A stretch of DNA of 54,809 bases, from positions 1 through 54,809 of the forward strand of contig KZ538671.1 of assembly GCA_000934665.2 (NCBI GenBank), read 5' to 3'. The stretch comes from Catajapyx aquilonaris (Eukaryota). The notes under the pieces were generated by a model. The model had not been told where the DNA came from and searched no databases. It saw only the letters and a list, made by a program, of their open reading frames with translations. Both the position numbers and the translations under genes were made by a program. Of this stretch, positions 3,257-54,809 are shown piece by piece. How positions within the stretch are numbered: the stretch's first letter is position 1; each line of letters begins with the position of its first letter.

Positions 3257-6200
3257 TCAGGTTGTCCCATTTTCATTGGTTACTGCTGCTGCGGGCTTTT
3301 CCCACTCTGCAAATCCGAACTTCACCAACTCACATCCGACGTTGACGTCCTGCAACGATATGGTAGGTATGATTCGGCTGGATTTCAAACGCAGGAAAAA
3401 TGCTTACGTACCTGCGGCCCACTGCTGTCCACAAGCTCAACACATGGCACTTTCCTGCCGCCCGGCTCCTTCTCCTTGTACTGGATCACAGAAGCCAATA
3501 TGACCTTCCATTCAGCCGCGTGACTCAGCTCCTGGAACATATCCGTAGCCTCCTCGCTCCACTCACCTCCCCTAGAACAAACAAATTTTCATACAGATCA
3601 GTATATGACAACCATGTCGATGGCACTCGTAAAGACAATCACTGGTTACAAGTGGTTACTACCTATTTACTGATTAAGGATGCGGTTACAACCAGTTATA
3701 GGTCGTTACTCCTTCACATAACAAGCAGTTCTCAATATCGGTAGCGAATCCACCAGAGACAAAAGTATATGTCGGAGAATCACATCACAAGTTACGGCAT
3801 TAAAAATGAAACGGCATGTGTGCGTCACAATTAATTCGCTAAACTGTATGATTGCAATGTACATATTTTCTCGTGGCTGTTTACACCGCTAACATAATCC
3901 GCCCCGTAGCGTTTCCTTAAAAGCCATTTCAGACCGACTTGGACCAGACTAGATTATTTAAACGAGGTCTTGGAAGGGCATTGAGACAAACAGGATAACG
4001 AGACGTAGTGTTGACTGTGGGGTGGGGGGGATTGATGGTAAACAACAAGCTCCCCTTTGGCAGAGGAGTCATAGGAAGGCCGGCCGGCACATGTGCCAAA
4101 GTGGTGGCCCATTCAGAGGTTGGCAGTCGGGGCTGGGTTTCGTAGGCAGGGTGGGGAGGAGGAGAGGATCATCCGGCACTATATAAAGCTAGTTTCAGGA
4201 CGACCTGATAAACAGTCAGCTCGAAACCATCATTTGGGATACACCAGGCCATCACACTAGATACGCAAGGTAATGTCACTTGGCGTTGACCAACCAACCT
4301 GTTTTTCTGCTACGCAATTGCATTTTCACCCTGTCATTTTATCGTTTTTCGTTCTCTCTTAGCATGCTAATGACGCAGAAGTCGGAGTCAAAGGGATGCC
4401 CCTCGGGTATGGAGATCCAGGTACGGAACATGCTGGACGTCACCTTCCGTTACACGTGGGTGGTGGAGGACTACCTGCAGCGGACGTCTGAGAAGCGGGA
4501 CATGGACAGCCTTCCCTTTGAGGTCAATGCCAACGGCCTTCACACTCGTTGGTCCCTGGCAGTACGGTTCTGGACTGGACCAGACGGGCAGCGGATATCC
4601 AACCCGGTGGTCCTCTGCCTCAATCTGGTCGGTGTGAACGTGGAGGTATCTGAAGAAGTACGACTGCGGTACCAGTTTGGGATATACAACGATGCCGTGA
4701 AGCAATACGAGTTGATGCCAGCCAGCGGTGCAGATCTGACCCTTGAAACTAACGACCGCATTTCATCAGTCGGATATCGGGACATGTCTGTACTCGACAG
4801 GCACCGGGATGCTCACGGAGATGTACGATTTGCAGTACGTTTGATGCTGGTACTACGCCGACCTGGTGAGCTCCACACATTGCCCCTGGATCTGCTTCAG
4901 ATGTTGATGGGTGGCGATCATGCAGACGCAACACTATGCGCTGAAGATAAGGAGTTTCGGGTCCATCGTGCCGTCCTGAGTGCAAGATCGCCAGTATTCG
5001 CTGCCATGTTCAAGCATGGGATGCGTGAGGCACTTGATGGGAAGGTGACCATCGAGGATATATCATCCGAGAACCTGCAGTCACTCCTACAATACGTATA
5101 CACCGACAGGGTTGAAAGCATCGATGCGCAAGCCCAATCGCTGTTACCAGTAGCCGAGAAGTATCAGCTGATTGGCTTGAAGGCATTATGCGAGAAGGCT
5201 CTTATTGACGCAATCACTCCGAGCAACGTGGCTGCGACTTTGCTGATGGCAGACAGCTTCCAGTGTGAGAACCTGAAACGTGCAGCACTGGCATACTGTG
5301 AGGACAATGCCAACTCGATCGTGAAGAATGTTGGGTGGAAGGTGATGGAAGAAGTCCATCCAGAACTGTTCCAGCAGGCGTGTGAGGTGGTCGTGCGAGA
5401 ATCTTGCGCATGTCACGTCGACTGCGTACGGCAGGAATCGCCGAAGGGGGAGGTCAGGGTTCCCTGAGTCGCACAGGGTGATTATTTTGTACAGTGTAAA
5501 TAAATTACCGTTTTACGAACTCATTATCAATTTGTTGACATTTGAAGGGTTTGTTGCCGAAGGAAATTTTGTCAACAGGAGTCAACATCACCTGGACAAG
5601 TCATCTATCGCAAGGAAATTAGCAGATCGTCCAGAAGTATTTTCCTTGCCCGCATAATATTAATCGGAATGGCCTGAATTTCGTGACCTTTTTCCTACTC
5701 ATGTCATTAGAAATGCTAATCACGGATGTCACTCTCTAATGTAAACAATTTTGCGTTAGGCAAGACAGCAAAAGCAGACTTGACTTTGCCCTCATGAGAT
5801 AATCGTGGCATCTCGGAAATTCCTCATAACATATGATAATGAGGTGGCTGAAATTAGATTACGTCTACATGTGAGAGGGAGAAACGTTGCCTACAAATCC
5901 TACCCTGATGTCGACTACGCAAAATGCCAAAAAATGCACCGATAGTTTTGTTCATGACATTATGTTATGTAAATGATATGGACATGTGATACAATCATGC
6001 TCAAAGAGATTATGTAACTGTGGTGCCACTTCTTGTGTTTAATAGAGTGGGCATTTGACCGAAGCGTAGTGGGAAATATTTGGCAAATTGCCCCCCCCAG
6101 TCGGTAACAATGCACTTCCAGAGACTTCCTTGAAGACATACCAAACATATTTCGCAATTCTCCCAGCCAACATGTTGTTCTTCGTTTTGCGTACTTGTGT

Positions 6201-9120
6201 CATTTCATATTGTAAATTAAACTAATTTCCCAAGCTCGTTGCAGAACTAATTGCGGAACTCTTGCAGAATCTAACAAGCCTTCATTGTACATCTGAAATG
6301 GCAGTGTTGTTAAATATCCTTACCTGGGTAAAACCTTGGCCAAGTAGCACTCAATGGCTTGGAAGCGTAATCGCAGAAAGTCAGTTCTAATCTCGTAGAC
6401 GTCACTCCTGGAAACGTCTTCTGAATCTCCGTAATCTACAAAGTAAACTGAAATCTTTGCTTCCTCAGGAGAGTACGCATCCGTTTCCACGGCCATCACT
6501 TTCGCACGGTACCAGGACTTGTCGTGGGTAAAAGGCGCCACGACTATGTCTCCTACATTAACCTGTCATGGAAAAAAAAGAGACGTGCTAGTTAGTTCTT
6601 TCATTCCAATTGTCAGTTGCTGACAAACACATGCTGTGCAACAATGTGTACGGTGGCCTCAAATAATTCACCGAAAGGTCCTTACACTTCATGTGATTGT
6701 ACATCAGGATTAGAAAATAGAGCATATAAACAGGCAATCTAATAAATTGGAAGTCATTGCACTATTCACATGTACCGAGCGAATAAAGTCAACAGCCTTT
6801 AAAGGCATCCCTAGTCAATCACCTTGTGTCGAGATATCAAGCATTGAACTTTTCTATTGTGTCTAGAAGACAATTACATCCACAAACTCGACCGCATAGT
6901 ACCAGCTGTACCGCCACCGCCTAGATCAGGGGTGGGCAAACTCTTTTTTCTCCATGGGTCGCATAGAGATTTTTAAAAAATTGACAGGCCGCATCTAACA
7001 AAAGATATTTCAACATTCTAAAAAAGTTTCCAATCATTCCGGTGTAAACAAGTGAAGGGAGAAGGCGACTATGGACAATGCGACGTTGATGAGTATGGAG
7101 CAGGGCCGCGGGGCTTGGATGCTGTATCACCCTGTATCTCATGAAGGGATCCAGAAGGGTCAGGTAGCGCCTCCGCACCCGTAAAAAGCGTCGAAGGCAC
7201 CGAACGTGATCTACAAATCGAATGGTCGTCACCGTGTAGGCCATTTCTCATGTGACGAGGTGACCAAGACATCCCGAGGTGTCTTGATCGTCACTTCTAT
7301 TAACTACTCAGTTCCATGTTTACTAGTGCCTAATCAGAAGCACGAAAATTCCATCCGTCCTAAGATAATAGTCAGAACCTCTAAACAGTGGCTAATAGTA
7401 AGACGAAATTTCGGCCCAAAATATCCATCGTTTTAAATGAACTTCCATTAATTGCATAAATTATATTAAAATTCTCTCAAAATCAATAAAATTATCTAAA
7501 TATATCAATGGAAATGGCCTGTACAAAAACAGCTACACTTTTACATTCATGCTCTACAGAATGCATGTGCTGGAAACAATTTTACTTGCATAGAAGTCCG
7601 TAAATTAATTCCCAAAAAGATAACCGCACAGTATACCCGCTACATTTCAATCGGCTAGATTTTTCCTCCTGTTCAACTTACAAGTACTCTGAAGGTAAGG
7701 CCAAAAAGATCACTGTAAAATATAAAAATTGAAGTACTACCGGCCAACTGTTAGGCTGATTTAATTATGAAATACGCTAAAATATACAGTCTAATAACAA
7801 CCTTGAGAACCATGCCACACGAATTTGCTGAAATCGTTGTATTTTTATCAGCGACTTGAGGGAAAACTCCCAAATTAATTTCCTGAAAAGTACGACGACT
7901 TCCATCAAATTCTTGTGGCACAGTTCTCAAGGTTGTTATTCCGCACATTGTAACACATTTCATAATTAAATCAGCCTAACAGTTGACCGGCAGTACTTGG
8001 ATTATGTGGTTTTACAGCGACATTTTTGAAAATTAATTCTGGGGACTTCTAGATGAACAAACTGGTTTCCGACACATTCGTTAGTGTTTTCCATGAACGT
8101 TATTATTTGTTCACCTTTGTCAAGCCTCACCTGGTTGAGCTTATGCAGTTCCCTGTTTGTTTCCTGATTATAGTACTCAGTCATGCCCTCCACCAGCTTG
8201 TCAAGCTCAACCGCTTTCGGACCCACCGCCTGCACCCAGAAGCGTCCGGCCGTGTCCACTGCTGAGACAAACACCTCCATGAACCCATCGTTGTTGGTGG
8301 GCGATAGGTTCGCCTCCCTGTCTCCCGATCCCGCAACTTGCGTCCCTTCCTCTTCCATTGTGAGGAACAGGAGGGGCTTTCGGGCGCCATAACGAGGCCC
8401 CCTGCGGTTGGCCGACTCGTGTATCTGGCTGCGCATCTCCTCCTCCTCCGCCACCTTCTCGTCAATCATCTTCTTCGCCGTTTCTACCCCAGACGGCTCG
8501 CCACGAATCGTCACCAGCTGACGCCCATTGCTGCTGACCCCGCCAGACTGGACCTGTCAGGAACCAAGGATTAGTCCCACCTTTTCATTTACGGACATTA
8601 AACAAACCTTAATGGTGGCTCCGGACACTTTACACATAAGCCGAATATTCTCTCCGTTCCTTCCGATGATCCTTCCGCAAGCCTTCTTCGGCACCCAAAC
8701 CTCCTCTGTCAGGATCTTGGGTAGGCTGGCCATTATCTGGTAGATAAGCGCCTTTGCATGCTCGCAATCGCTGGGCTTCCCCCGAATGATGCACACCCGA
8801 TACTCCGACGCTTCCTCGGCCTCGTCAAAGTTGATCCTTGTTCCCGACTTGGCCTCCACCTGCTTTATGTTGCTCCCGCCTCTCCCAATCACCGATCCGG
8901 TCTGATCCCGATGGATCTTCATCCGGATCTCAACCGTCTTAGAGCTCCGATCAGAACAAGACACCCGTTCATCCTCATCCTACAAAAAAGGGAACAGCAT
9001 GTTAATCCCATGTCGGGGCTTCCGACAAACCGACAGTACCTTCTTGTAGTACATATACAGCAGTACCATCCCACCAACTCCGGCCGCAATTGGTAGCAAA
9101 ATAGCCGTCAGTTTCGCCAT
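3257..9120 (-). CDS. TDRKH: Tudor and KH domain-containing protein (papi/TDRKH-like), ~455 aa; exons 9120-9040, 8979-8608, 8553-8131, 6562-6324, 3571-3412, 3349-3257
   Basis: N-terminal hydrophobic anchor (MAKLTAILLPIAAGVGGMVLLYMYYKK), two KH GxxG loops (VIGRGGSNIK, IIGRNGENIR), Tudor core (SWYRAKV...VYFVDYGDSE) and SN-like extension (LRFQAIECYLA, WSEEATDMFQEL). All introns are GT-AG and the phases are consistent. Confidence 0.92.
4180..4187 (+). promoter_or_regulatory. TATA box of the nested MATH-BTB gene
   Basis: TATATAAA with an Inr-like CAGTC ~30 nt downstream, followed by a 5'UTR intron (GT at 4270 to AG at 4362). Confidence 0.65.
4364..5467 (+). CDS. MATH-BTB protein (SPOP/roadkill/TDPOZ-like Cul3 substrate adaptor), ~367 aa, single coding exon
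   Basis: Divergent MATH-like N-terminus (FRYTWVVEDY), BTB signature (DATLCAEDKEFRVHRAVLSARSPVFAAMF...LLQYVYTD) and BACK-like helices (AEKYQLIGLKALCE...LKRAALAY). The ATG follows a splice acceptor at 4362. Confidence 0.9.
   Translation: MLMTQKSESKGCPSGMEIQVRNMLDVTFRYTWVVEDYLQRTSEKRDMDSLPFEVNANGLHTRWSLAVRFWTGPDGQRISNPVVLCLNLVGVNVEVSEEVRLRYQFGIYNDAVKQYELMPASGADLTLETNDRISSVGYRDMSVLDRHRDAHGDVRFAVRLMLVLRRPGELHTLPLDLLQMLMGGDHADATLCAEDKEFRVHRAVLSARSPVFAAMFKHGMREALDGKVTIEDISSENLQSLLQYVYTDRVESIDAQAQSLLPVAEKYQLIGLKALCEKALIDAITPSNVAATLLMADSFQCENLKRAALAYCEDNANSIVKNVGWKVMEEVHPELFQQACEVVVRESCACHVDCVRQESPKGEVRVP
7737..7993. mobile_element. MITE with ~38 bp TIRs flanked by TA (Tc1/mariner-type)
   Basis: ta|ctaccggccaactgttaggctgatttaattatgaaat ... 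atttcataattaaatcagcctaacagttgaccggcag|ta, located in a TDRKH intron. Confidence 0.75.
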
Positions 9121-13371: not shown

Positions 13372-13439
13372 NNNNNNNNNNNNNNNNNNNNNNNNNNNNN
13401 NNNNNNNNNNNNNNNNNNNNNNNNNNNNNNNNNNNNNNN
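13372..13439. other. Assembly gap
   Basis: Run of N between poly-A and poly-C tracts. Confidence 1.
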
Positions 13440-14318: not shown

Positions 14319-17300
14319 ATGACTTCACACTTGATCATTTGTCTACTAGGTAAGTACCATTCAAGTTAAAATTTACAACCAGTCTCGTACCCAATTCGAG
14401 TTGGAGAAAGGCGGTACCACAACCATTATTAAATCAAGGACAATTGTCACCCCCACCTGCGTAGGTGTGCGTGTCATGTGAAACACATAAAAGGGAAAGG
14501 TGGTATGCATCTTCCTTTGTGATCACACATTTAATTAGGGGGCTCATCCTCTGTGTAATCAAGGTTATAAAATGGAATGCGATCGCCACAGGAAGAGAAA
14601 GGGTTTTGAACTTATACGTTACAACTATTTGGGACGTCTCTTTTTTGAAGTTACCAAGAGATGCTGCGGAGGTTTAGTGAATGTCTGGCTGTAGGCTAAT
14701 GTGGACCTTGCGTGGGCTCGAATGGTCACGATTCCCATTATGATCGGTTTGGGCGGATTTTAAAACTGCAAGACGAAGCTCTTCTCACGAGGAAGAAGGG
14801 AGGGTCTGTTGCTTTTTTTTTATTTCGTTAAAGGAGTTCAACCAGTTTGAATAGATTTCATAACTAGCCCAAGGATACCCTGTCAGGTGGAATAGAAATG
14901 ACAGGAAATGTCTCAAAGAGTCGAACCGATTGTTGAAGCAGTCATTCTTATTGACGCTTTTCTCACGGTCCTTTCTCATTCACACATTGTGGCGACAAGC
15001 AAAAAAAGAAGTTCATGGCCTTTTTGTTTCTTATTTTTTTAAAAAACTAGAGCGTGAGTACTTTTAACCAGCCGTTTTTATGTTTCAGGCTTACTCCTGC
15101 TTCCTTCTGATTTGGCCCAGACTCCATCGCAAAATGAACTGACAGATCAACCTCAGCAGTTCTTCTCAAGTCCTAAACCTTCACACAGGTTCGCAACTCC
15201 GGTACGATTCGCCAAATTTCCAGGAGTTCGAGGAGCCACCGAACCTCCAGAGAAAACAGTGCCAATAAGTGGACCTCAACGTGGACCTAACCGTCAACCT
15301 ATAAGGACACCTAACCGGCAGCTTAATAACGGAAGAAACGATGATACCAGGCATTTTGTGGGACAGAACGAGGATAACAGGTTTAATGGAAGGAACGACG
15401 AACGGCAGTTTAACGGTCGAAATGATGAAAGGCCGTTTATTGGACGGAGCGAAGATAACAGGCCGTCTATTGGACGGAGCGAAGATAACCGGGCGTCTAT
15501 TGGCCGGAGCGAGGATAACCGGCCGTTTAGTGGCCGGAGCGAAGATAACCGACAGTTTAGTGGCCGGAGCGAGGATAACCGGCCGTTTGCAGGTCAGGAA
15601 CAGGTTACACCTTCGCAGAAGTTAACACCTGCACAGTTTAACAGAGGAAATGCGGTTAGAACCCATTTTACCAGCCCTCCAGAACATACTCGTCGACGAC
15701 CACCACCACAGTTTGATGCCTCCAGTTCAACACGGCCGGTTCAAACGACATTTTCGACTGTACCGACACCGACCAGATTTGTTGACCATACCTTCAGAGG
15801 TCAGTCGTCCAATAGTTTGCCGGTCACCACACCGTTGCCACCTAGAAGAACTTCGATTCCTCCTCAACAGCCACAGGGACAGTTTAGATTCAGTACTAAG
15901 AACCAGGCCAGGCCATTTACCGAGGGAAATCCGGAGAGGTCGTTCGATGATCAAGGACACAATAGGAGAAACCAGCAACAGTTTCCGGAGGAAACGTTTC
16001 AAGAGGGTCAATCGTCCAACTTTAATTTCGGTCCGTCGAATAATCAGTTCGAGAGGAGGAATGAAGAAAGCGGGACGGTCACTCCCATCCAAGAGCGTGA
16101 AGATTTCTCACGATTGCGAAGCCAGCCGAAGACCTTTGACCTCCAGCAGCAGAGACCCAACCCACAGCAATTTCAACAGCAGCCGCAAAGGTTTGATCGT
16201 CCAAGGCAGCAGCAACAACAGACCAGTCCTCCACCCCAATTTCAACAACAAGAAAGGTTTGACAGACCTGTTCAACAAAGACGGGAACAGCCGGTACAAC
16301 AAAGACAGCAGCCTACACCACCACCAGTACAAAGGAGACAACCGGTTCAACAAAGAAGGCAACAGACGACACCTCAAAGGCAACAAACCACCCAGCAGCC
16401 TTTCTTTGACCGACGGTCATCGCCTGCTCCAGTTGACCAATTTGACTCCCAGTTCAGACAACAATCGCAGAGTACCAACCAGTTCTCCCAGCAGCTTCAG
16501 GAGGACCAGAGGGCCAATTTGAGGTTCCAGCAACGACAGCAGCAGGAACGACAACAGCCTGACAACCAATTTCGGCAGGAGAGACCTGCTGCTCAACCTA
16601 GACCACAGCAGCAGGACCAAGAACGAAGAGATGACCTATTTCAACAACAGCAGCAACGACGACAGGAGCAGGAGAGACGACAGGAGCAGGAAAGACGACA
16701 GGAGCTGGAAAGACGACAGGAGCTGGAAAGACGACAGGAGCTGGAAAGACGACAGGAGCAGGAACGACGACAGGAGCAGGAAAGACGACAGGAGCTGGAA
16801 AGACGACAGGAGCAGCAGAGACGACAGGAACAGGAGAGACGAAACCAGCAGTCTGAACACGACAGGTTCAGACAACTGGAGTTGGATCGACGAGCAAGTG
16901 CACCTCAGTTCAAGCCTGAAGACTCCAGAAGGAACCAGCAGCAATCACAAGACAGTGACCTGAGGTCAAACCCCAGGCAGTTTCAGCAGGACAGCAGGCC
17001 ACAAGCTGAGAGTCGACGACAACAACCTGAACCTCCAAAAGACAACCCTCAACAGGATGAATCCATCGACTATCCTTACGATATCCTCAACACAATTCCA
17101 GGTATGTGTCCAAAAAAATAATTGTTTCGGACATATTCAACAGTAGAGCTCAATTAGTGTCCGAAACAATTTTTTTTGCCAATGTTGTTTATTAATTATG
17201 ATTTTTTTTTAAAATTCGACAGGCGAGCCAGGAAAGGACTATCCGACGTTCGCAGGAGTGGAAGTAACCGAATTCAAATGCGATGGACGATTAGGTGGTT

Positions 17301-18648: not shown

Positions 18649-19391
18649 TTATTTGCGTACTGCGTCTTTTGTCAACGATTCTGATTGGTCAGTGTTGCTG
18701 CTGTCGACGTCATTGTTGGGTTCTTCAGAGGTGTCGTACAGCCTATTGTTGCGTTGGTAGAAGGTCTCAGCATGGGAGCAATCCACGTTGTACCACCAGT
18801 CACACACAAAATGCTCTTGGTTGAAAATAGTCCCATTTGGACACAGGAAGGCGTGTCCATATGTCTTTTGACACATCCAAAACACCTGGAATGTAATCAT
18901 ATTGTCACAAAATAATGTTACACGTACCCATGTATACTGACCTGGCATCTGGACATGGTGTCAGCGTAATATCCAGGCAGCTCGTGGTCCTTGCAGCTAA
19001 ACCCGGTTTTAGGTACCTGCGAATACACTGGATAATCTTCACCAGCGACACCTGGTATTGTTGATTCCAGGCCAGGCTGCATTTGTTGTCCGCTCTGATC
19101 TAAGCTGTCAGCAAATGTCTGAAGCAACTCGTAGTCATCCGTAGGAATAATGGCCTCTTCCATTACATCATTTACATGCTGGTAATGAGCTTCATCCGGT
19201 TCTAAGGCCGGTTCTGAACTGGATGGCTCGCCTGTGTTTGACTCGAATTCAGTTGTTGCTGTTACGCGAATTTGTCTGCCGTTGCTTACCATCACTGTTG
19301 AGAGTTACAATTTGTTAATTATAATTATTAGCTATAGTAAATTATTGAAGGGCTTACCAATTGCCAGGAGCACCAAAATGTGACGCTTCAT
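18649..19391 (-). CDS. Secreted chitin-binding type-2 (CBM14/CPAP1-like) protein, ~207 aa; exons 19391-19358, 19294-18942, 18885-18649
   Basis: Signal peptide MKRHILVLLAIVMVSNG; IPGVAGEDYPVYSQVPKTGFSC...GYYADTMSRCQVFWMC...FLCPNGTIFNQEHFVCDWWYNVDC. TATA at 19443-19450. Confidence 0.9.
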
Positions 19392-35405: not shown

Positions 35406-35568
35406 ATGGCTGAAGAGAGCAACATGAGTTGGATGCAGCGCTTTCTTATCCAGATAGTGAAGCAAGGAGATGTTCCGCGACATGTAGCTATCATTATGGA
35501 CGGAAACAGAAGATACGCCAGGAGCAAAGGGCTGCCGGTCATTCATGGGCACAGGGAAGGGTAAATGA

Positions 35569-35638
<70 letters not shown>

Positions 35639-37145
35639 TCATAAGAAGATGTTGGAGGCCCAGGAATGGTGCAGAGAGATGGGAGTGTACGCCCTAACAG
35701 CCTATGCTTTCAGCATAGAGAACTTCAAGAGGACAAAGGAAGAGGTGGATGGACTGATGGCATTGTTCGAGGAAGCGTTTCAAGATATCGTGGACAATAT
35801 GTGAGTCGTGATGTCTGAGATAAACAATTGAAGGATTGGAAAGCAAAATAGATCTTGGAAATTGTTTCACACTGCTGGACATAATAATTTATAATCAACT
35901 AGCTCATAGATTCGCAATTAAAAGTAACTGTTCCAAAGAAACTGCTAGCCTATACATATTGAGCAGTTTAGTGCCACAAATCGCAAACCACTTAGGGCAA
36001 TTTAATAGGAACATTTTGTACTGAGAATAATATGATAATGGCAATGCACATGGCTTCAATCGTTCAATGTGAGCAATATTTTCAATTATTCCAGCGACAC
36101 TTGGATCAAGAGGGGTACTCAGATCCGCGTGATGGGTCGACTGGAACTATTTCCCCAAAAACTGCAAACCCTGGCTGGACAGATCATGGAGAAGACGGCT
36201 CATTGCACCAAGGACGTCTTTACTCTGGCGGCTCCCTATACACATGTGAGTTACACCATTACCCACTTTGTTATACAGCAAGTGCGTGGTGAAGCACATC
36301 CTGGCAGGTTTGCACCCAACCACACACGGATCACGTGCAAAATATCACGCTCTGCGAGTGCTGTATTCGCATAGGAAAATGTGGTTATGCATGGTCATCT
36401 CACCCACGGTCAAATGCACTCTGAAAATGGTCGATCAGAAAATATTGGTTCCTACGGGCTACCTGTCTGCATAGTATGTTACAAATTTTCTTTCTCATCT
36501 ATGCAGCCCGTGATGACATGACCTCCGCAATTCACCAGCTGATGGACGGAGTGGGCAACGGTCTGTCAGAGGGACTGATGGAGAAGTGTCTCCAGACCAG
36601 GGACCTTCCTCCTGTGGACATGCTCGTTAGGACATCAGGGGAAATGAGGTTCTCGGACTTCATGCTCTGGCAGGTCAGTCCCAAGTGCTGCTGCAGCTTT
36701 AGGTCACTATAGTTATGTAACTACTATTTTGCAGAGCTCCTACAGCTACATTTGCTTTGAGCAAGTAACATGGCCTGAATATGGATTCTGGAACTTCCTT
36801 GGAAGCATCTTGCTCTTTCAACGTCATGCACACCATTTGAAGGTATGGTACAGTATGTCCTCTTTCGGTTTAACCAATTTACGTTATCTCCTATAAGATT
36901 GCATCATTCAACCGAACTTCACATGGTTGCTAGTATTACAAAATAATAAGCTTATATTGAAATGTTATTCGATATCACTGAATATTGACACAATCCTGTT
37001 ACAGGATCGTCTGATGAAAGCTGGGCAAGAACTGCAGAGAGAACGATTAGAAGCGGACAAGGGAAGCAGGATTAGTAGTTTCTTGCATACTCTGGACAGA
37101 AATTACGCCCAGTATGTGACGAGCCTGTCCAGTAATTCGCCATAA
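35406..37145 (+). pseudogene. DHDDS: cis-prenyltransferase (DHDDS-like) copy 1, apparently frameshifted; exons 35406-35560, 35639-35800, 36095-36245, 36507-36673, 36735-36842, 37005-37145
   Basis: Motifs [25 protein letters not shown] and [19 protein letters not shown]. Exon 3 is 151 nt versus 149 nt in copy 3 (+2 frameshift), and exon 4 lacks 18 nt. Confidence 0.75.
35570..35635 (+). repeat. (ATT)n microsatellite filling most of intron 1 of cis-PT copy 1
   Basis: ~22 perfect ATT units between the GT donor at 35561 and the AG acceptor at 35638. Confidence 0.97.
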
Positions 37146-38411: not shown

Positions 38412-38563
38412 ATGGCTGGAGAAGGCAACATCATGACTCGGATGCAGCGCTTCATGATCCAGATAGTAAGGCCAGGAGATGTTCCGCGACATGTGGCGGT
38501 CATAATGGACGGAAATAGAAGATACGCCAAAAGCAAAGGGCTGCCGGTCATAGAGGGTCACAA
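38412..38563 (+). pseudogene. cis-prenyltransferase copy 2, exon-1-only fragment
   Basis: [51 protein letters not shown], then abrupt loss of similarity; no downstream cis-PT exons before 50705. Confidence 0.85.
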
Positions 38564-39492: not shown

Positions 39493-41181
39493 CGAAACAT
39501 GATACATCATTATTTTATCCCGGAGTTGAATACTCCCCTTCACTGCACCATTGCCGTTGAATAACTATTTTCACTCTTATTTTGCCACTAACACATGTAT
39601 ACTCTATTGTTAATGGAAAATAATTATGACACTCTGTGCTTAAGACTCTAGAGAATTTAATGACAGAGTGATGAACCAGCCTGAAACTACGATCTAACAT
39701 AAACCTGTCGTTTCGGATCAAGAACGATGTTACACGACTACGACCGTAATAAATTTAAATCACAGAATCAGAATTTCAGATCTTCAATAATTGTAATTAG
39801 GAAAATAGAGAAACACGGGAATCCCGTCCACGAGCTGTCCTGCTCCGAATAACATAATATTGAATGAAAACATCACGAGACCCCCTGACGTTTTTCATGA
39901 TCATGTCATGTTATCCTTGGGCGCAACAGGGTCACATAAGAATATGACGTAACATCTCTTTATCGAAGATTTTTTTGAACACAATATTATGGAACTTGTA
40001 TGACCGGATTAACCATGCAGGTGTATAATGCTGGCTCTTCAGAAGGAAAAGATTGATTCCATATGAAGGAACGAAGCGACGAAGACATATTGCCAGATTT
40101 GACAAGAGACGGGTAAGTCATACTGTCATGCATTATTTGACATTTTTTTTTTCAAAAAATCGACATGTTAAAAAGACAAGATTGGCAGTGGGGATCAAAT
40201 TGAATCAGTTGAGTGTGTGGGTTGTTTATGGGAATAGGCGATAAGGTGTTAAGAGGGGGATAAATAGGATATTTCTTTGTATGTAGTGAATTATTGAGGT
40301 TTTTTGTTATTAGAGCAAACAAGATTGGTAAGTTGGTCATTTTCATTATGCATGTTATAATATTTCAGGGATTAAAATTTTCATGACGCTGTCCTGAAAA
40401 GTGATTTGAAATGACATAGGTACTTTTATCGTTCAATAAGCAGGTTAGGTGATATTTGTATACCGGTTATCATTGACTTAATCAGGCCAAAATGTGTATC
40501 TAAGCGGTGGAATATTAAATTTCGAAAATGGCACACAACACCAAGAAGTCAAATAAAAACTATTAGGAAAAATGATGCTACTTCACTAACACACAATAAA
40601 CATAAGCTAAAAATGATGAGGAATAAAAAAATAATTCTTCGTTGGAAGCAAAAAAATTAATTAAATCTTAAATGCATTTTCATTAACTCCACAATCCAGA
40701 GCAAACAATTACACAAGAGTGGCTTAATGAAAAGTCTTCTATGAAGGACGCGCATGTTCATAGTCACTAAATCCAGCAGTTTGTCGATATGACGTCCTCA
40801 TGGTCGCAAGGACGTCCGAGGGGGAAAAATTCGCGAAAATATCTCGTAATCATTTGAATCATACGAAAGTAGTTTACAGCGTGGATGAATTATACGTCGT
40901 AGTATCCCAGGGCAATTAATTATTTAAAGTAGTTTGGCTCCAGATGACACTGGCTAGGCTGGGGTAGTCAGACCACTCTTGCATAACTATTTTTTTGTTA
41001 ATTGTTACATCAATGCATTAGTTCCTCGGATAATTAATTGGTTAATTAATATCTGGACACCTAGTGACAAGAGTGAGTCATTTCAGAGGCGAAAGTGTAA
41101 GGAAATTCCAGTTTCAGACTAAAATAAAATCATTTTTAGATCGTAGTATATTACGTTTAACGGAGGTTTATGCTCATAATG
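39493..41181 (+). repeat. Segmental duplication block A (copy 2)
   Basis: Collinear with 32603-34316. Confidence 0.9.
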
Positions 41182-41384
41182 TACAATGTAAGCGTGTGAA
41201 GAAGGAGGAGAGTCGGCCAAGCGGCATGTGCTGCAGGTCGACAAAGGCTAAATAAAGCAAAAAATAAACAGAAACAAACAAAACAACAGTGTCACAAATA
41301 AATATTACGCGTAACATCTCTTTATCGAAGATTTTTTTAACACAATAATATTATGGAACTTGTACGTCAGGATTAACCCTGCAG

Positions 41385-41929: not shown

Positions 41930-43772
41930 TTATTACACGCTTTATATCAGCTTCACTTTCTTGTCTGTGAGCGGATGTTTGTGTGTCCGTGTGTCCACCC
42001 CTCTCTTCGCCATTGCCCCGCCATCTATCGGTAGGGATTAACGTTAGGGGTGATTTCGCGCCTTCCTACACCATCTAGCGGTTGGTTTTCACATTAGGTA
42101 GTCACGTGATTGGCTGTGTTCGCTACCTCCCTACCATCTGGCGGTAGAAGTCACATGATGGGTGAATTTGCATCTTCCATACCTACTAGCGGTAGTAGTC
42201 ACGTCATTGGCTGTGTTCGCTACCTCCCTACCGTCTGGCGGTAGTAGTCACATGATGGGTGAATTTGCAACTTCCATACCTACTAGCGGTAGTAGTCACG
42301 TGATTGGCTGTGTTCGCTACCTCCCTACCGTCTGGCGGTAGTAGTCACATGATGAGTGAATTTGCAACTGCCATACCTACTAGCGGTAGTCGTCACGTCA
42401 GTTGGTCCCTTGCCCCACCATCTCAGGTACTTCCGTCACCTACTTCCCCCCTTTCCACCCCTTCTTCCTTTCCACCCCATTGGTGGGGTGGGTGGGGGGG
42501 GGGGTTCTCTCCCCACACCATCTAGCGGTTGGGGTTCACATTAGGGGTGACTATGCCACATCAACGCCAGATGGCGGCAGTAGTCACGTGAGGTTGTCAC
42601 ATCGCTACACATCTCCGTCGCTACTTCCTCCACATCATCGGGAGGTAGTCACGTGATTGGCTGTGTTCGCTACCTCCCTACCATCTGGCGGTAGTAGCCA
42701 CATGATGGGTGAATTTGCAACTTCCATACCTACTAGCGGTAGTAGTCACGTGAGTCGGTCTGTTAGCAATCTCCACACCAGTCACCGGAGTTACTGGCTC
42801 TCAGTATCCAGTTCGCTTCCTCCAAACTACAGGGCGGGAGTAAATACTCCAGACTGTTTTTTAGTGACAAAGTGAAAAGATTACAAATCACAGCCTGGCA
42901 CCATTCAACTAACTCCCCATGTACTATACATCAGTCATTCCTTCCACTTTATCACTAAAAACCAGTTAAAATAAAAATATATAAAAAACCTTTTTATTAC
43001 ACGCTTTATATTAGCTTCACGTTGTCTGTGAGTGTGTGTGTCCACCCCTCCGTTCGCCCTTGCCCCACCATCTATTGGTAGGTATTAACGTAAGGGGTGA
43101 TTTCGCGCCTTCCCACACCATCTAGCGGTTGGTATTCACATTAGGGGTGACTTTCCTACATCAACGCCAGATGGCGGCAGTAGTCACGTGAGGTTCGCAC
43201 ATCGCTGCACATCTCCGTCGCTACTTCCCCTACATCATAGTGAGGTAGTCACGTGATTGGCTGTGTTCGCAATCTTCATGCCATCTAGCGGCAGTAGTCA
43301 CGTGAATGGGTGGATTTGCAACTTCCACAATTAACGTTAGGTGTCACTTCGCAACCTCAACGTCATTTGGCGTAGTAGTCACTTTAGTTTATGAGGTCGC
43401 TTCGTCTTCCACCGCATTGTTTGGGTGTCATCCGCCACTTCCACACCATTATCTGAAGGCAGTTCGGGAGGCAGTCACGTGAATGGGTGAATTTGCAACT
43501 TCCATACCTACTAGCGGTAGTAGTCACGTGAGTCGGTATGTTAGCAATCTCCACGCCAGTCACCGGAGTTACTGGCTCTCAGTATCCAGTTCGCTTCCTC
43601 CAAACTACAGGGCGGGAGTAAATACTCCAGACTGTTTTTTTAGTGACAAAGTGAAAAGATTACAAATCACAGCCTGGCACCATTCACCTAACTCCCCATG
43701 TACTTTACATATGTCATTCCTTCCACTTTATCACTAAAAACAAGTTAAAATAAAAATATATAAAAACCCTTT
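41930..43772 (+). mobile_element. Two tandem non-autonomous elements (Helitron/Helentron-like) with an internal GC-rich minisatellite
   Basis: Both units (~41930-42990, ~42995-43772) start ttattacacgctttatat(c/t)agcttcac + GT-rich microsatellite, contain ccatct(a/g)gcggtagtagtcacgtg repeats and share a ~280 bp 3' end. The family assignment is inference. Confidence 0.55.
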
Positions 43773-44245
43773 TAAAGAACACGCTTTATATTTCCAAGTG
43801 CACTAAAAAGTAGAAAATAATTTTTCTTCCTCAATCTTCAGCTTTCTCTTTTACCTTGAACTGAACAGAAGATTCATGACTTTCTTTCCATGGAATTCAG
43901 CTACTGCAGTATTGTCTTGCTTTACTTATATTCTTATACGGCCTACATGACGAAAAATAAAGCGTGGGCACTAAAATTTTAATACTGTACATGGTTATAT
44001 TTCATGCCATGGAAGTAGATAATGTGTCATTTAGTGCCCACGCTTTATTTCTCGTCATGTAGGCCGTATAAGAATATAAGTAAAGCAAGACAATACTGCA
44101 GTAGCTGAATTCCATGGAAAGAAAGTCATGCATCTTCTGTTCAGTTCAAGGTAAAAGAGAAAGCTGAAGATTGAGGAAGAAATTATTTTCTACTTTTTAG
44201 TGACCTTGGAAATATAAAGCGTGTTCTTAAAAAGATTTTTATATA
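43757..44245. repeat. Long inverted repeat (~220 bp arms, ~54 bp spacer)
   Basis: 43757-43975 is the near-perfect reverse complement of 44030-44245. Confidence 0.92.
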
Positions 44246-45025
44246 TATATTTTTACACATACAGAGTCGGCCGAGCGGCATGTGCTGCAGGCCGACAAAG
44301 GCTAAATAAAGCAAAAAACAAACAAAAACAAACAAAACAACAGTGTCACAAATAAATATTACGCGTAACATCTCTTTATCGAAGATTTTTTTAACACAAG
44401 AATATTATGGAACTTGTACGTCAGGATTAACCGTGCAGGTGTATAATGCTGGCTCTTCAGAAGGAAAATATTGATTCCAGATGAAGGAACGAACGAAGCG
44501 ACGAAGACATATTGTCAGATTTGACAGAGACGGGTATATCATAGGCCGACTGTCATCCATTATTTGACTTTTTTTAAATTTACACATATGTTAAAAAGAC
44601 AAGATTGGCAGTGTGGATCAAATTGAATCAGTTGAGTGTGTGGATTGTTTATGAGAATAGGCGACAAGGTGTTAAGAGGGAGATAAAGAGAATATATTTC
44701 TTTGTATGTAGTGAATTATTGAGGTTTTTTTGTTATTAGAGCAAACAAGATTGTAAAATCACAGCATGAGCGTGAGTAGACGAGACATTTTCTCATTCTT
44801 TCAAGTAGACTTGTACGGATAGAGTGAACCCGAAAAACTGGAAGTGGGTTCCAGTGCTTATCTCAATTTTGACGTTTTTGTGGGTTGACCCAATATTGCA
44901 TAACACCGTCCATACAGCTTCAGTGTGCAGCGACTTGAATAACACATCGACTGCGGAGCACCAACAGAAACAACTACTCCCGAGTGTCTACTACTAATAT
45001 TCCCTTTCAGAAACTTATTAAAGAG

Positions 45026-46817
45026 ATGGGGTCTAAGAACCTAGACACAGACTCTTTTTTGGCGCTGACCTCTGAGGTCATTAAGAGCCTGACCATCTCC
45101 GAAAAGCACGACCAGGGCCTGAGAGACTTTGACAGTTGGTTCAAAAAGGTCAGGACTCTAATTAGATTGTGAGCAGGTCTCTTCACACGTATTTGTCATT
45201 GCAGATGTTGAACTACAACCTTCTCGGAGGGAAACTGAACCGAGGCACGATGGTGGCCAATTCATTTTCCGTCCTGGCAGAGAAGGAAGATGTCACAGAG
45301 GAGAACATCAGGTTGGCACACTTATTGGGCTGGTGCATCGAGCTGGTCAGTTTTAGTACAGTGCTCTTGCCTGAACCATTAAGCAGAATAAATTATAAAT
45401 TTCGGAACCAATAATTCCATACGTAATGTTGTTTCCACAGCTGCAGGCAGCCTTTGTGGTGGCGGACGACATAATGGACAATTCCGAGACCAGAAGGGGT
45501 CATCCCTGCTGGTACTTGACCAACGGACTGGGGCCAAAGGCCTTCAAGGACGCCTTGCTCATGGAAAGGGCCGCCTTCAATATCATGTGGAAGTACCACC
45601 GAGACCAGACCTACTACAACAAGTGCGTCGACCTATTTAACGAGGTAATGCTCCAGAAGCGTGTTTTTAATAGAGGGAAACATTTACTCTGGGAGACATC
45701 AGGTGGTGGTCATAAACTCGCTCAAAATCGGGCTACATAACCCTTCGTGCCTGCATTATAACTACTACCCCAGGCAGCAAAGTTAATCGTTGTTATTAAT
45801 AATAATTATTGGAAACTATTATGAAATACAGACTGAGATGCATAAGTTGTGGACATGCTTTTCTTTCAAAGATTATTTTCAAAACGAAGAAGGGTCGGTG
45901 CCTGGACCTCCTGACCTCATCCGGAAGCAAGCCCCAGCTCGACCTCTGCACCGAAGAGAGATACGCAACAATAGTCAAGTACAAAACTTCATATCACTCC
46001 TTTTATCTCCCTGTGGGACTAGCAATGATCATGGTGAGAAATCTACAATATTAATTACGATAATAATTACAATAATATGTAATACAATACAGGGGGCAAT
46101 AAAAAGGCCACTTTAGAAAAAAAGCAGCACAGTAAAAATTGTCCTCACTGGAAGTCTATGAAGGATCTCATAAATAATTCACAATTTTTTTCAATGTATT
46201 CTTTCGGTGCATCTGATAAATCATGATGTAGTGTACAGTACGTATATGTTGCCACGAACATTATTAATTCACAATTACTGTATTAGGCTGGAATGTTTGA
46301 CGAAAGAAGTCAGTCGGAGGTGGAGGGAGTCCTCTTGAAGGTTGGTCACCTTTTCCAAGTCCAGGACGACTACTTGGACTGCTTCGGTGACCCAGAGGTC
46401 ATGGGGAAGGTGGGGACGGACATCGAGGAGGGAAAGTGCTCCTGGCTGGTGGTCACTGCCCTCAAGCACGCGGATCACCATCAGAAGATGGTCCTGGAGG
46501 TACTGTTGTACATCAAGGGCGCCATGTTCTTTGTTTCTTCTGGTGGCTGCTTCATGATGAATTTCTCAGCGTTTTGTTCGTGTCCTGACCTCCATCGCAT
46601 GTCCCTCCCATTTCAGAAGAACTACGGATCAGAGGACCCCAAGCACGTGTCCCTAGTTAAGAACCTCTACAGGGACCTCGGTCTCCAAGAGATGTACAGG
46701 GAGTTCGAAAATGACTCCAAGAACTCGATCCTGAAGGATATCTCCAACATGAAGAATCCGAACATGCGGGACCTCTGCACAACCTTTCTGAACAAAATCC
46801 TCGACAGGAAGCGATAA
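45026..46817 (+). CDS. FPPS: FPPS-family trans-isoprenyl diphosphate synthase, ~347 aa; exons 45026-45148, 45205-45345, 45441-45644, 45872-46033, 46287-46499, 46617-46817
   Basis: GGKLNRG, GWCIELLQA, FARM DDIMD + RRGHPCWY, YKT, FQVQDDYLD (SARM), GTDIEEGKCSWL and basic C-terminus RKR. All introns are GT-AG phase 0 and there are no internal stops. Confidence 0.93.
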
Positions 46818-47138
46818 ACGTAGCTGGCAACTAAACAGAGAAGACAACATGCTATAGTTGGTGTGAGAATGTAGTATGTATATAGTGTTATGATGAAAAA
46901 TATACACACATGCTTGCAGCAGTAGCCAGTCAGTCATGGTCAAGATTGGATCACCAGAGGAAATAAAGAGAAAACAAATTCACTTGCTTTCAGACAGTAT
47001 CAGACACCATTTCCAAGTGTTGCGAATGTCTATCCTGCCTCTCAAGTCTCAACGTACAGTTACTGTGCAAGAGAAAAAAAATATTAATCATCAAAATGCC
47101 GAGTAGGCCCTATTATGTTCGCAGACCAAAGATCCAGA

Positions 47139-50704: not shown

Positions 50705-52241
50705 ATGGCCGAAGAAAATAACCTGACTTGGATGCAGAGCTTTTTCGCTTCAATAGTGAAGCAAGGGGACGTTCCTCAACATATGGCCATCATCATGGAC
50801 GGGAACAGAAGATACGCAAGAGAAAGAAAATTGCCTCTCATTGAGGGACATAAAAATGGGTGAGAGATTATAAACAAGCACATTCCTGCCAAATGAAGTC
50901 GATCTTGGTGAGAGTTGATTCTTTCTCTATAGCCGATAGAAGTCATAGTGATTGAACTGCAATAATATAGTTATTGTGGTTTTTCTAGGGATATTCACAC
51001 AGGCGTTAATCCTAAATATGGAACACTTCTCTTTGTTGCAGCTATAAGAAGATGCTGGAGGTTCAGGAGTGGTCTAGAGCAATGGGAATCTACGCCTTAA
51101 CAGCATATGCTTTCAGCATAGAAAACTTCAAGAGGACTGATGAAGAAGTAAATGGGCTGATGGATTTGTTTGAGGAAGCGTTTCAAGACATCCTGGATGA
51201 TATGTGAGTCTCAACATGTTTTGTTGTCTGATTAATTTGTGTTATTTCCTATTTCCCGCCCAAGCTCCATAAATCTACCCACATATCCTCTGGTAGTCAT
51301 TCATTTTCCACGTCCTACATGCCACAAGATAATAACAAACGGCTCGTTTCAGCGATACGTGGATCAATCGAGACACTCAAATACGTGTGATTGGTCGACT
51401 GGAACTCTTTCCGAAAAGGCTGCAAATCCAGGCTGGACAGATCATGGAGAAACTGTCAGGCTGCAAAAAGCACGTCTTCACTCTGGCATGTCCTTACACG
51501 TGTGAGTATTCCATGACATACAAGAGTAAGGATTGGGCATCAACAAGTAACATTCATTTTCGTCCAGCCCGTGACGACATGACCTCCGCAATTCATCAGC
51601 TGATGGACGGAGTGGACGAAGGTCTGATCGAACCAGAGGACGTGTCAGAGGGACTGATGGAGAAGTGTCTCCAGACCAGGGACCTTCCTCCTGTGGACAT
51701 GCTCGTTAGGACATCAGGGGAAATGAGGTTCTCGGACTTCATGCTCTGGCAGGTCAGTCTCCATTTGCACTTTTCCTTCATTATTTGGTATGTAACAGTC
51801 ATTATCTAATTATAAATATTTTTCTGATTCAGAGTTCGTACAGTTATATCTGCTTCGAGAAAGTAACATGGCCACAGTATGGATTCTGGAATTTCCTGGG
51901 AGGCATCTTACTCTTCCAACGACATTCGTATTTCTTGAAGGTAGGATAACTATGCAGAGTATAGCTAGATTAATTGGTATAAATTAACGTGAAACCATCA
52001 GGTGGTTATCCGGATATACACGAAGACTATGATTCAAAAAGAATATTTGAATACATTTTTTTTTTACCGCCCGACAATTTTGCAGACAACTGATACTTTT
52101 TTTTTGCAGGATAAATTGAAAAGGCCGCAGGTCGAGCTGGAGCAAGAAAAATCTGACCCGGAGAAAGGAACACGAATAATTAATTTTCTGGGGAAGCTTG
52201 ACAAGAATCACATCGAGTATGTAGCGCACTTGTCACAATAA
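50705..52241 (+). CDS. DHDDS: cis-prenyltransferase (DHDDS-like) copy 3, intact, ~296 aa; exons 50705-50859, 51042-51203, 51353-51501, 51568-51752, 51833-51940, 52110-52241
   Basis: All five cis-PT conserved regions are present: [46 protein letters not shown]. The C-terminal helix is DHDDS-type ([10 protein letters not shown]) with no RxG tail, and the 891 nt spliced ORF is in frame. Confidence 0.93.
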
Positions 52242-54003: not shown

Positions 54004-54809
54004 ATGGCCGAAGAAAATAACCTAACGTGGATGCAGCGCTTCTTCGTGTCTATAGTGAAGCAAGGGGACGTTCCTCAACATATGGCGGTCATCATGGATG
54101 GAAACAGAAGATACGCAAGAGAGAAAAATTTGCCTCTCATTGAGGGACATAAAGAGGGGTGAGTCGTTTATAACTTATAAACTGGCCCCATTTACTCCTG
54201 CAAAATCGCTTTACGGGATGTTTAATCAGATTACTGACTGCTTCAAATCATGAAGTGATTGAACAGCAACGATAGTTATTGTGGTTTTCTTGCTCAGGCA
54301 TTCACACTAGATGTGAATCCTAATCGTTATGAAATCTTTTTTTCTTGTAGCTACAAGAAAATGCTGGAGGTTCAGGAGTGGTCTAGGGCAATGGGAATCT
54401 ATGCGACAACTGCGTATGCTTTCAGCATAGAGAACTTCAAGAGGTCAAAGGAAGAGGTCGATGGGCTGATGACTTTGTTCGAGAAAGCGTTTCAAGACAT
54501 CCTGGATGACATGTGAGTCTCAACACGTATCACGTATCAAAATTTGTATTATTTACCCATTACCTCTGCAAAGTCAATAAATATGTCCACTTACTCTATG
54601 GTATAGTAATTGACTTTCCATATTGTACGTATATACCACAAGATAAAATAACTTCAAAATTTCAGCGATACGTGGATCAATCGAGACACTCAAATACGTG
54701 TGATTGGCCGCTTGGAACTCTTTCCGAAAAGGCTGCAAATCCAGGCTGGACAGATCATGGAGAAACTGTCAGGCTGCAAAAAGCACGTCTTCACTCTGGC
54801 ATGTCCTTA
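54004..54809 (+). CDS. DHDDS: cis-prenyltransferase (DHDDS-like) copy 4, 5' part (exons 54004-54158, 54351-54512, 54666->54809), truncated by window end
   Basis: [38 protein letters not shown]...[18 protein letters not shown]; exon 1 and 2 lengths (155, 162 nt) match copy 3. Confidence 0.9.

Follow-up and report, generated by a model that had tools for sequence, protein, structure and literature searches.

A farnesyl-diphosphate-synthase-like gene with unusual pocket residues beside a cis-prenyltransferase array in Catajapyx aquilonaris

A stretch of 54,809 nucleotides from Catajapyx aquilonaris (GenBank assembly GCA_000934665.2, contig KZ538671.1, positions 1 to 54,809 of the forward strand; in the following referred to as the window) carries a six-exon gene of the farnesyl diphosphate synthase (FPPS) family (PF00348) on the + strand at 45026-46817, which encodes 347 amino acids in a stop-free frame. 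This FPPS-like copy is not the housekeeping enzyme but one young member of a multi-copy family. We favor, with a probability of roughly 45%, that it represents a young redundant paralog under relaxed constraint, in which the pocket for the hydrocarbon tail of the substrate has been re-lined. Insects have repeatedly built terpene enzymes for pheromones and defence from duplicated FPP synthases, and a copy caught early, with the catalytic machinery whole and the pocket changed, shows which residues move first, be it on the way to a new enzyme or to a dead one.

Exchanged and retained residues of the FPPS-like protein

The gene product is predicted to be a type-I (eukaryotic) FPPS-family protein of an arthropod. 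Its best full-length database match is P0004 (387 aa, 50% identity), followed by a termite FPPS (47%) and by the FPPSs of a bivalve, a ray, a springtail and a barnacle (45-48%), and full-length BLASTP among 270 proteins returned no relative closer than P0004. An exhaustive search of 1.84 billion representatives with the frame of exons 5-6 yielded 1942 matches at E<=0.001; the best of them, P0122 (51% identity), looks like a chimeric gene model and was set aside. In a tree of 48 rows, containing the window protein and 47 of the 120 homologues described below (every named animal along with three plants, one alga and the top unnamed proteins by rank, the 73 homologues left out being mostly from plants), the window protein pairs with P0004 (SH-aLRT 98) on the side of the tree where the FPPSs of springtail, mite, barnacle and insects are found, in line with an arthropod lineage that has little database coverage. 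The terminal branch of the window protein measures 0.76 compared to a median of 0.25. P0004 itself is canonical in its motifs (AFFLVADD, AIND, GQ, KTAYYSF). No published FPPS expansion in arthropods or crustaceans that would fit was found in the literature.

Residues were mapped by aligning exons 3-4 without gaps to the FPPSs of human (4p0v) and bird (1fps), and positions are given in the numbering of the avian enzyme and of 1zw5, which corresponds to the window residue plus 20. The roles assigned to residues follow from alignment to the solved FPPS structures and from published descriptions. Conservation was counted in the best 120 of 852 matches among 991 candidates (more than half plant proteins). 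With canonical type-I eukaryotic FPPS (human, avian; 4p0v, 1zw5, 1fps) the window protein shares the PF00348 fold family, the length and the ungapped alignment of exons 3-4. It differs from avian and human FPPS by the substitutions F112A, L114V, Q129H, I143F, N144K, E182K, Q185R and Y218H, and in the C-terminal tail, which reads ILDRKR compared to the human YKRRK, by Y363L and K364D (YK to LD), while Arg365 is kept.

Several of these exchanges fall on nearly invariant positions. At position -5 before the first aspartate-rich motif (FARM) the homologues carry Tyr (57), Phe (38), Ser (15), Val (4) or Ala (1), i.e., an aromatic residue in 95 of 120; with Ala at -5 and Phe at -4 the capping phenyls of the window protein do not form the aromatic pair of the housekeeping FPPS. 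Asn144 is found in 118 of 120 homologues and Gln185 in 112, and neither Lys at the former nor Arg at the latter position occurs in any of them. Tyr218 is present in 113 homologues (His in 2), Tyr363 likewise in 113 (Leu in 0), and Lys or Arg at position 364 again in 113 (Asp in 0). The earlier note on this DNA had read the Ala at -5 (GCC, 45450-45452), the motif AFKD in place of AIND (Lys AAG, 45546-45548) and TKKGRCLD with an Arg codon CGG (45896-45898), all of which are found in the assembled sequence. It had also treated the Glu of 'TExGQ' as conserved; this does not hold, as Glu occupies position 182 in just 7 of 120 homologues, and for this reason E182K taken singly would carry little weight. 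Y218H beside the KT motif, L114V, Q129H and the altered C-terminal tail had not been recorded. Among the 84 near-invariant columns the window protein has a non-consensus residue in 7, compared to 1.5 in the median homologue, and 18 of the 120 homologues reach at least 7; the protein is unusual, yet not extreme.

The catalytic machinery is retained. FARM (DDIMD, window residue 97), the second aspartate-rich motif (SARM; FQVQDDYLD, window residue 233), the KxxR motif in GKLNRG, the RRG motif in TRRG, KT, FQ, GKxGTD and Arg365 are intact, so that the earlier statement on the integrity of FARM, SARM, KxxR, RRG, KT and FQ stands, the part on KT hiding the exchange Y218H two residues on. By alignment and published motif patterns, all residues for binding of Mg2+, of the allylic diphosphate and of the diphosphate of isopentenyl diphosphate (IPP) are kept. 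Applying the patterns for the IPP-binding motifs (IBM; PMC10108439, section 2.3, Table 1), the protein passes FARM, SARM, IBM-1 (GKLNRG), IBM-3 (SETRRG) and IBM-5 (GKVGTD), including the basic residues contacting the IPP diphosphate (Lys51, Arg54, Arg106 and Arg107 in window numbering), and fails IBM-2 (L114V), IBM-4 (KTSYHSF, Y218H) and IBM-6 at the true C-terminus. These latter three patterns are strict, as only 71, 79 and 73 of the 120 homologues, respectively, pass them.

The altered positions are predicted to line the hydrocarbon-tail pocket and the C-terminal lid, suggesting that the pocket is re-lined. It was described that the tail pocket is lined by Phe98, Phe99 and Gln171 in the numbering of the mature protein (corresponding to 112, 113 and 185), with Gln171 stacking on the tail, that Asn144 acts in trans, the partner subunit of the dimer pushing this Asn into the pocket end, and that Tyr349 (corresponding to 363) acts as a switch by which the basic tail closes, a movement that catalysis requires (PMC7815940). 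Enlarging or blocking of the tail pocket alters the FPPS product (PMC7003354; bioRxiv 10.64898/2026.04.28.721314; PMC7815940): avian F112A forms mainly geranylgeranyl diphosphate (GGPP; PMC7003354), and in yeast Erg20 the exchanges F96W and N127W at the equivalent two positions slow the step from geranyl diphosphate (GPP) to FPP (bioRxiv 10.64898/2026.04.28.721314). The literature statements on avian F112A and on Erg20 N127 in the earlier note are therefore correct. These variants and lepidopteran FPPS2 are changed at the same positions as the window protein, i.e., the phenyl at -5 and the Asn of AIND (PMC7003354; bioRxiv 10.64898/2026.04.28.721314; PMC7815940); however, they carry small or aromatic residues, whereas the window protein carries Lys and Arg.

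Near-copies of the gene and contig support for its codons

Logan contigs were collected for 45000-46850 (1851 nt) from the DNA runs X1, X2 and X4, which stem from one sample, and from X5 of another study, a run whose kind is not on record and which is labeled RNA-like only from contigs joining across introns 1-4. The contigs are mosaics after bubble-popping in which rare variants are dropped, and no copy number was derived, as summed contig depth does not measure it. The variants considered are 40 of 93, which were translated and compared with P0004 and the 120 homologues. On the 1851 nt the three DNA runs place 115 (X1), 122 (X2) and 110 (X4) contigs; in X1, 22 of them are at least 99% like the window, 34 are 95-99% and 59 are 90-95% alike, and at position 46352 the letter of the window is replaced by another in six to nine contigs of each DNA run. 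This number of contigs on so short a stretch together with the many differing letters shows that the genome holds several sequences that are 90-99% like the FPPS-like gene, i.e., a family of near-copies.

At the decisive positions the near-copies are canonical. Position 45548 is C, resulting in Asn144, in every contig of the four runs (5, 6, 4 and 1 in X1, X2, X4 and X5, the order kept in the following). Similarly, A at 45897 restores Gln185 in 3, 4, 3 and 1 contigs, T at 45995 restores Tyr218 in 3, 3, 3 and 1, and G at 45503 restores Gln129 in 5, 3, 2 and 1, while G at 45887, encoding Glu182, is found in X2 and X5. P0004 and 75-118 of the 120 homologues side with these other contigs, except at the variable residue 162 (position 182). 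N144K, Q185R, Y218H, E182K and Q129H are specific to this copy and not shared with the near-identical, canonical copies. A different situation is seen further upstream. No variant within 45441-45499 is among the 40 of 93 considered, though contigs are dense there, and for this reason Ala at -5 and Val114 may be family-wide and thereby the normal state of the animal. A word-index search with exon 3 for short paralog fragments gave no candidate.

The codons CGG and CAC of the window are genuine. G at 45897 is present in X1 record 4 and X4 record 19 (129 nt), whose only difference from the window is the lack of 7 nt at 45941, and C at 45995 is present in X1 record 5 and X4 record 20 (331 nt) without any differing letter; the 129-nt pair begins in intron 3 and the 331-nt pair extends through intron 4, and both introns are unique to this locus. 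For the Lys of AFKD the outcome differs: G at 45548 occurs in 0 contigs of the four runs, and as contigs drop rare variants this leaves the Lys unconfirmed, not refuted. Assembly error, against which the earlier note had set its proposals, is thereby countered by contigs for CGG and CAC and not for the Lys codon.

Relaxed constraint or new function as possible readings

The existence of canonical copies in the genome would make this copy redundant and allow it to drift under relaxed constraint. In the re-lined pocket the first capping phenyl is replaced by Ala, the Asn contributed by the partner subunit by Lys, the tail-stacking Gln by Arg and the floor Tyr near KT by His. The copy probably still binds and ionises dimethylallyl diphosphate or GPP and condenses it with IPP, presumably at reduced strength and with a changed spread of products. 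Longer chains might be permitted by Ala at -5, and binding of the tail is probably disturbed by the Lys and Arg of the pocket. Following this reading the copy would be in the process of being lost and not of acquiring a new function. An altered chain length, as suggested in the earlier note, is possible judged from these residues.

Decay as the fate of the locus, which had been mentioned earlier as one option, gains support from two observations, i.e., the share of replacements and a frameshifted, near-identical haplotype. Among the 34 listed exonic variants, 19 change the amino acid and 15 are silent, far more replacements than expected of a housekeeping FPPS, the variants pooling several copies. 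Each of the four runs contains one contig with a gap of 7 nt (45941-45947), which shifts the frame of the window and leads to a stop after nine codons, and these contigs share the flanking intron sequence of the window. As an example, an X2 contig that lacks the 7 nt at 45941 has canonical letters at 45887 and 45897 and is flanked by contigs identical to introns 3 and 4 of the window. Moreover, one G of the run at 45496-45499 is missing from an X5 contig. The departures at near-invariant columns and the long terminal branch given above likewise point to relaxed constraint. The simplest interpretation of the 7-nt gap is a broken version of the locus, either a near-identical allele or a twin copy, which would make the locus dispensable.

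Several points weigh against relaxed constraint. The contigs, being mosaics, do not allow the 7-nt gap to be assigned to this copy by phasing, and the 7 nt are present in the window. The gene has an uninterrupted reading frame, with GT-AG borders at all five introns. X1 record 1, the sole contig spanning an intron of a near-copy, differs from the window by 3-4 changes in 173 nt of exons and by 4-5 changes plus a 2-nt gap in 56 nt of the intron. As the exons have diverged less than the intron, selection acted on at least one of these two copies. Furthermore, six replacements can be assigned to this copy using P0004 as outgroup (Q30, H109, K124, R165, H198 and G224 in window numbering). Three of the six fall in the approximately 30 active-site residues named in the literature, and none affects a metal-binding, diphosphate-binding or catalytic residue. 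The binomial chance for this is approximately 0.01 for the six changes and 0.08 if six unassignable changes are counted, figures that flatter the case, as the pocket set was fixed from literature but the gene was flagged for these very changes. The pattern of copy-specific changes looks more like remodelling of the pocket than like blind drift. Finally, the variant evidence rests on the 40 of 93 rows mentioned above.

These points lead to a second reading, which we consider possible, though less probable than drift: the copy might be a working prenyltransferase selected for a new specificity, with a tail pocket remodelled for a different chain length or for an atypical allylic substrate, and it would supply the neighbouring cis-prenyltransferases. 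In a variant of this reading the copy would form a heterodimer in which Lys144 is pushed into the pocket of a canonical partner, shortening the product of the partner. The intact open reading frame and catalytic residues, the clustering of copy-specific changes in the pocket, the action of Asn144 in trans across the dimer and the product changes of avian F112A and Erg20 F96W/N127W described above are in line with it. Moreover, three open DHDDS-like genes form the array in which the gene is embedded, and the mealybug Planococcus citri likewise has expanded FPPS-like and DHDDS-like genes (PMC10960109). However, Lys144 and Arg185 are each absent from all 120 homologues, diverged plant paralogs included, and charged residues are an unusual lining for a hydrocarbon pocket. 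The frameshifted near-identical haplotype speaks against selection for a new role, as does the finding that the spliced X5 contigs carry only canonical letters at 45548, 45887, 45897 and 45995. In addition, with many family copies in the genome, the position of one of them beside cis-prenyltransferases could be chance, and the copies of the array are old (exons 77-84% alike), whereas the FPPS-like copy is young.

The suggestion in the earlier note of a terpene-synthase side activity loses support. An IPP-condensing enzyme turned terpene synthase (TPS), derived from an isoprenyl diphosphate synthase (IDS) and converting GPP or FPP to terpene hydrocarbons as the stink-bug and flea-beetle enzymes do, is improbable here. 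Like the window protein, MhTPS of the harlequin bug and PsTPS1 of the flea beetle originate from arthropod FPPS duplicates, have a non-aromatic residue before FARM and show a disturbed IBM-4 (PMC10108439; PMC6140472), and the IBM-4 aromatic is lost in predicted TPS-like proteins of fire ant and medfly (PMC10108439). In this regard the broken IBM-4 (Y218H) and the failed IBM-2 and IBM-6 patterns of the window protein would fit, although failure of these strict patterns is weak evidence, given the moderate number of ordinary homologues that pass them. However, MhTPS and PsTPS1 lost the basic IBM-1 and IBM-3 residues (K71/R74, R127) that hold the IPP diphosphate, and the basic IBM-1 residues are described as lost in all characterised beetle and bug TPSs (PMC10108439). 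The window protein keeps all of them, with IBM-1, IBM-3 and IBM-5 intact, which weakens the terpene-synthase reading, and no aromatic residue was gained in the pocket.

Still less probable is that the gene encodes the ordinary FPP synthase of the lineage, forming (E,E)-FPP, with the odd residues being the normal state of the clade. The lack of listed variants in 45441-45499 would allow Ala92 and Val94 (positions 112 and 114) to be family-shared, P0109 as 1 of 120 homologues also has Ala at -5, and Ala is permitted there by the IBM-2 pattern (PMC10108439). However, near-copies in the same genome and P0004 read Asn144, Gln185 and Tyr218, by which this explanation is already contradicted for the window residues 124, 165 and 198. 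Sharing with the housekeeping copies, named earlier as a possible refutation, thus fails for the five copy-specific exchanges and may apply to Ala at -5. Least probable of all is an artefact of sequencing or of collapsed paralogs: G at 45548, A at 45579 and A at 45585 are found in 0 contigs of the four runs and window and contigs differ by the 7 nt at 45941, but CGG and CAC stand in matching contigs that reach the unique introns, and the frame aligns without gaps to human and avian FPPS.

Gene structure, the cis-prenyltransferase array and further features

Within the gene, exon 1 (45026-45148, residues 1-41; window numbering applies to this paragraph) starts with the ATG at 45026 and is followed by a GT donor after 45148. 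Exon 2 (45205-45345, residues 42-88) has AG/GT borders, carries GKLNRG (IBM-1) and matches PF00348 with E 7.2e-05 and 22.6 bits, under the 27-bit cut-off. Exons 3 and 4 correspond to the interval flagged earlier (45441-46033). Exon 3 (45441-45644, residues 89-156; E 3.2e-14, 53.2 bits), which from its first base 45441 reads LQAAFVVADDIMD, contains Ala92 (GCC, 45450-45452), FARM (DDIMD, 45465-45479), SETRRGH and AFKD with Lys124 (AAG, 45546-45548). Exon 4 (45872-46033, residues 157-210; E 3e-06, 27.1 bits), which reads IIFKTKKGRCLD, contains Lys162 (AAG, 45887-45889), Arg165 (CGG, 45896-45898) and KTSYHSF with His198 (CAC, 45995-45997). Exon 5 (46287-46499, residues 211-281; E 1.4e-21, 77.3 bits) holds SARM (46353-46379) and GKVGTD, and exon 6 (46617-46817, residues 282-347 and stop) follows an AG acceptor before 46617 and ends with the tail ILDRKR (46797-46814) and TAA (46815-46817). 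The PF00348 profile thus exceeds the 27-bit cut-off in exons 3, 4 and 5, and exons 1 and 6 are without match. All exons lie on the + strand and all five introns, with their GT-AG borders, are in phase 0.

X5 contigs join exactly at four of the five introns, i.e., at 45148/45205, 45345/45441, 45644/45872 and 46033/46287 (introns 1-4). For intron 5, the aligned part of one X5 contig (record 30) ends exactly at 46499, the 3' border of exon 5, and that of another begins at 46615. Because several letters differ from the window, these junction contigs stem from related copies, and they back the exon structure and not the expression of this copy itself. Intron 5 (46500-46616, 117 nt) is without in-frame stop, and its retention would add 39 residues and leave the protein unbroken. 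Upstream of 45018, just past an AG at 45011-45012, the spliced X5 contigs of related copies cease to match the window, which suggests that the 5' ends are copy-specific or that a non-coding exon lies upstream; an exact match to the window over 45000-45088 is seen in one X5 contig, which continues upstream. A tblastn search with the protein revealed no second FPPS copy within the 54,809-nt window, all other matches having E >= 0.5; those at 18875-19141 and elsewhere (E 0.5-9) were dismissed as chance. Directly upstream of the gene a 0.5-kb palindrome (43751-44255, 90% alike) and dispersed repeats that are 87-97% alike (39924-40327 and 44338-44753; 41209-41384 and 44263-44438) are located, possibly remains of mobile elements tied to the duplication.

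The FPPS-like gene is located inside a tandem array of cis-prenyltransferase genes (PF01255) on the same strand, composed of three open genes and a lone first exon, and this array is the more novel item of the locus. Copy 1 (35415-36896, +), DHDDS-like, has five exons in an open, stop-free splice model and covers PF01255 profile positions 1-215. Of copy 2 (38433-38561, +) the first exon only is present (profile positions 1-21; tblastn match to residues 9-51 of P0121 only). Copy 3 (50714-51949, +) again has five open exons covering the profile, copies 1, 3 and 4 being found by tblastn with P0121, and copy 4 (54013-54809, +) shows the first three exons, open, before it runs off the window. IMDGNRRYA is kept in all four copies. 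Copies 1 and 3 match PF01255, and the motif RTSGExRxSDFxLWQ is present in the array genes. The best match among solved structures is human DHDDS (6w2l_A, E 1.2e-18, listed for copy 3) compared to E. coli UPPS (3.6e-12), and a word search with 82 candidates gave one database match (32% identity). The proteins have approximately 265 aa and are C-terminally short compared to DHDDS (330 aa). As the exons are just 77-84% alike at the DNA level, the array appears to be older than the divergence of the FPPS-like copy from its twins. No other Pfam domains were found on either strand over 34-54.8 kb.

Cis-prenyltransferases take the products of trans-IDSs, i.e., allylic diphosphates, as primers. The linkage could therefore be functional, or it could equally be due to chance given the many FPPS copies. 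If it is functional, the locus would be a rare animal terpenoid gene cluster and point to a pathway with Z-configured or otherwise unusual prenyl diphosphates. We regard the full form of this idea as unlikely: the FPPS-like copy would give an unusual allylic primer, or would reset the chain length of a canonical partner in a heterodimer via Lys144 in trans, and the divergent short DHDDS-like enzymes would add Z-units, resulting in lineage-specific prenyl diphosphates for signalling or defence. The literature searches made for a linkage of a trans-IDS copy with arrayed, divergent cis-prenyltransferases gave no case for arthropods. In the mealybug, trans-IDS and DHDDS-like cis-IDS are both expanded and the extra cis-IDSs are very distant from ordinary DHDDS; however, its FPPS-like copies have a non-canonical SARM (NDxxD), whereas the SARM is canonical here, and physical linkage of the two families is not mentioned in the sections on these expansions, in contrast to the linkage here (PMC10960109). 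Similarly, in the chromosome-8 cluster of tomato tandem short-chain cis-prenyltransferases lie beside a gene for a terpenoid enzyme, but this is a plant cluster with a canonical TPS as partner, whereas here the partner is a trans-IDS and the function of the array is putative (bioRxiv 10.1101/2020.02.21.960112; PMC7422722).

Further genes are present at a distance from the array. An intronless BTB/BACK (SPOP-like) gene of 367 aa is located at 4364-5464 (+), its nearest protein-atlas clusters being from nematode, arthropod and plant. At 8002-8979 (-) a TDRKH-like gene encodes two KH domains and one Tudor domain; the stop between its two open frames is probably part of a short intron. An assembly gap of 68 N spans 13372-13439, and at 15058-17121 (+) an open frame of 687 aa without Pfam match is rich in Gln, Arg, Glu and Pro and contains ERRQEQ-type repeats.

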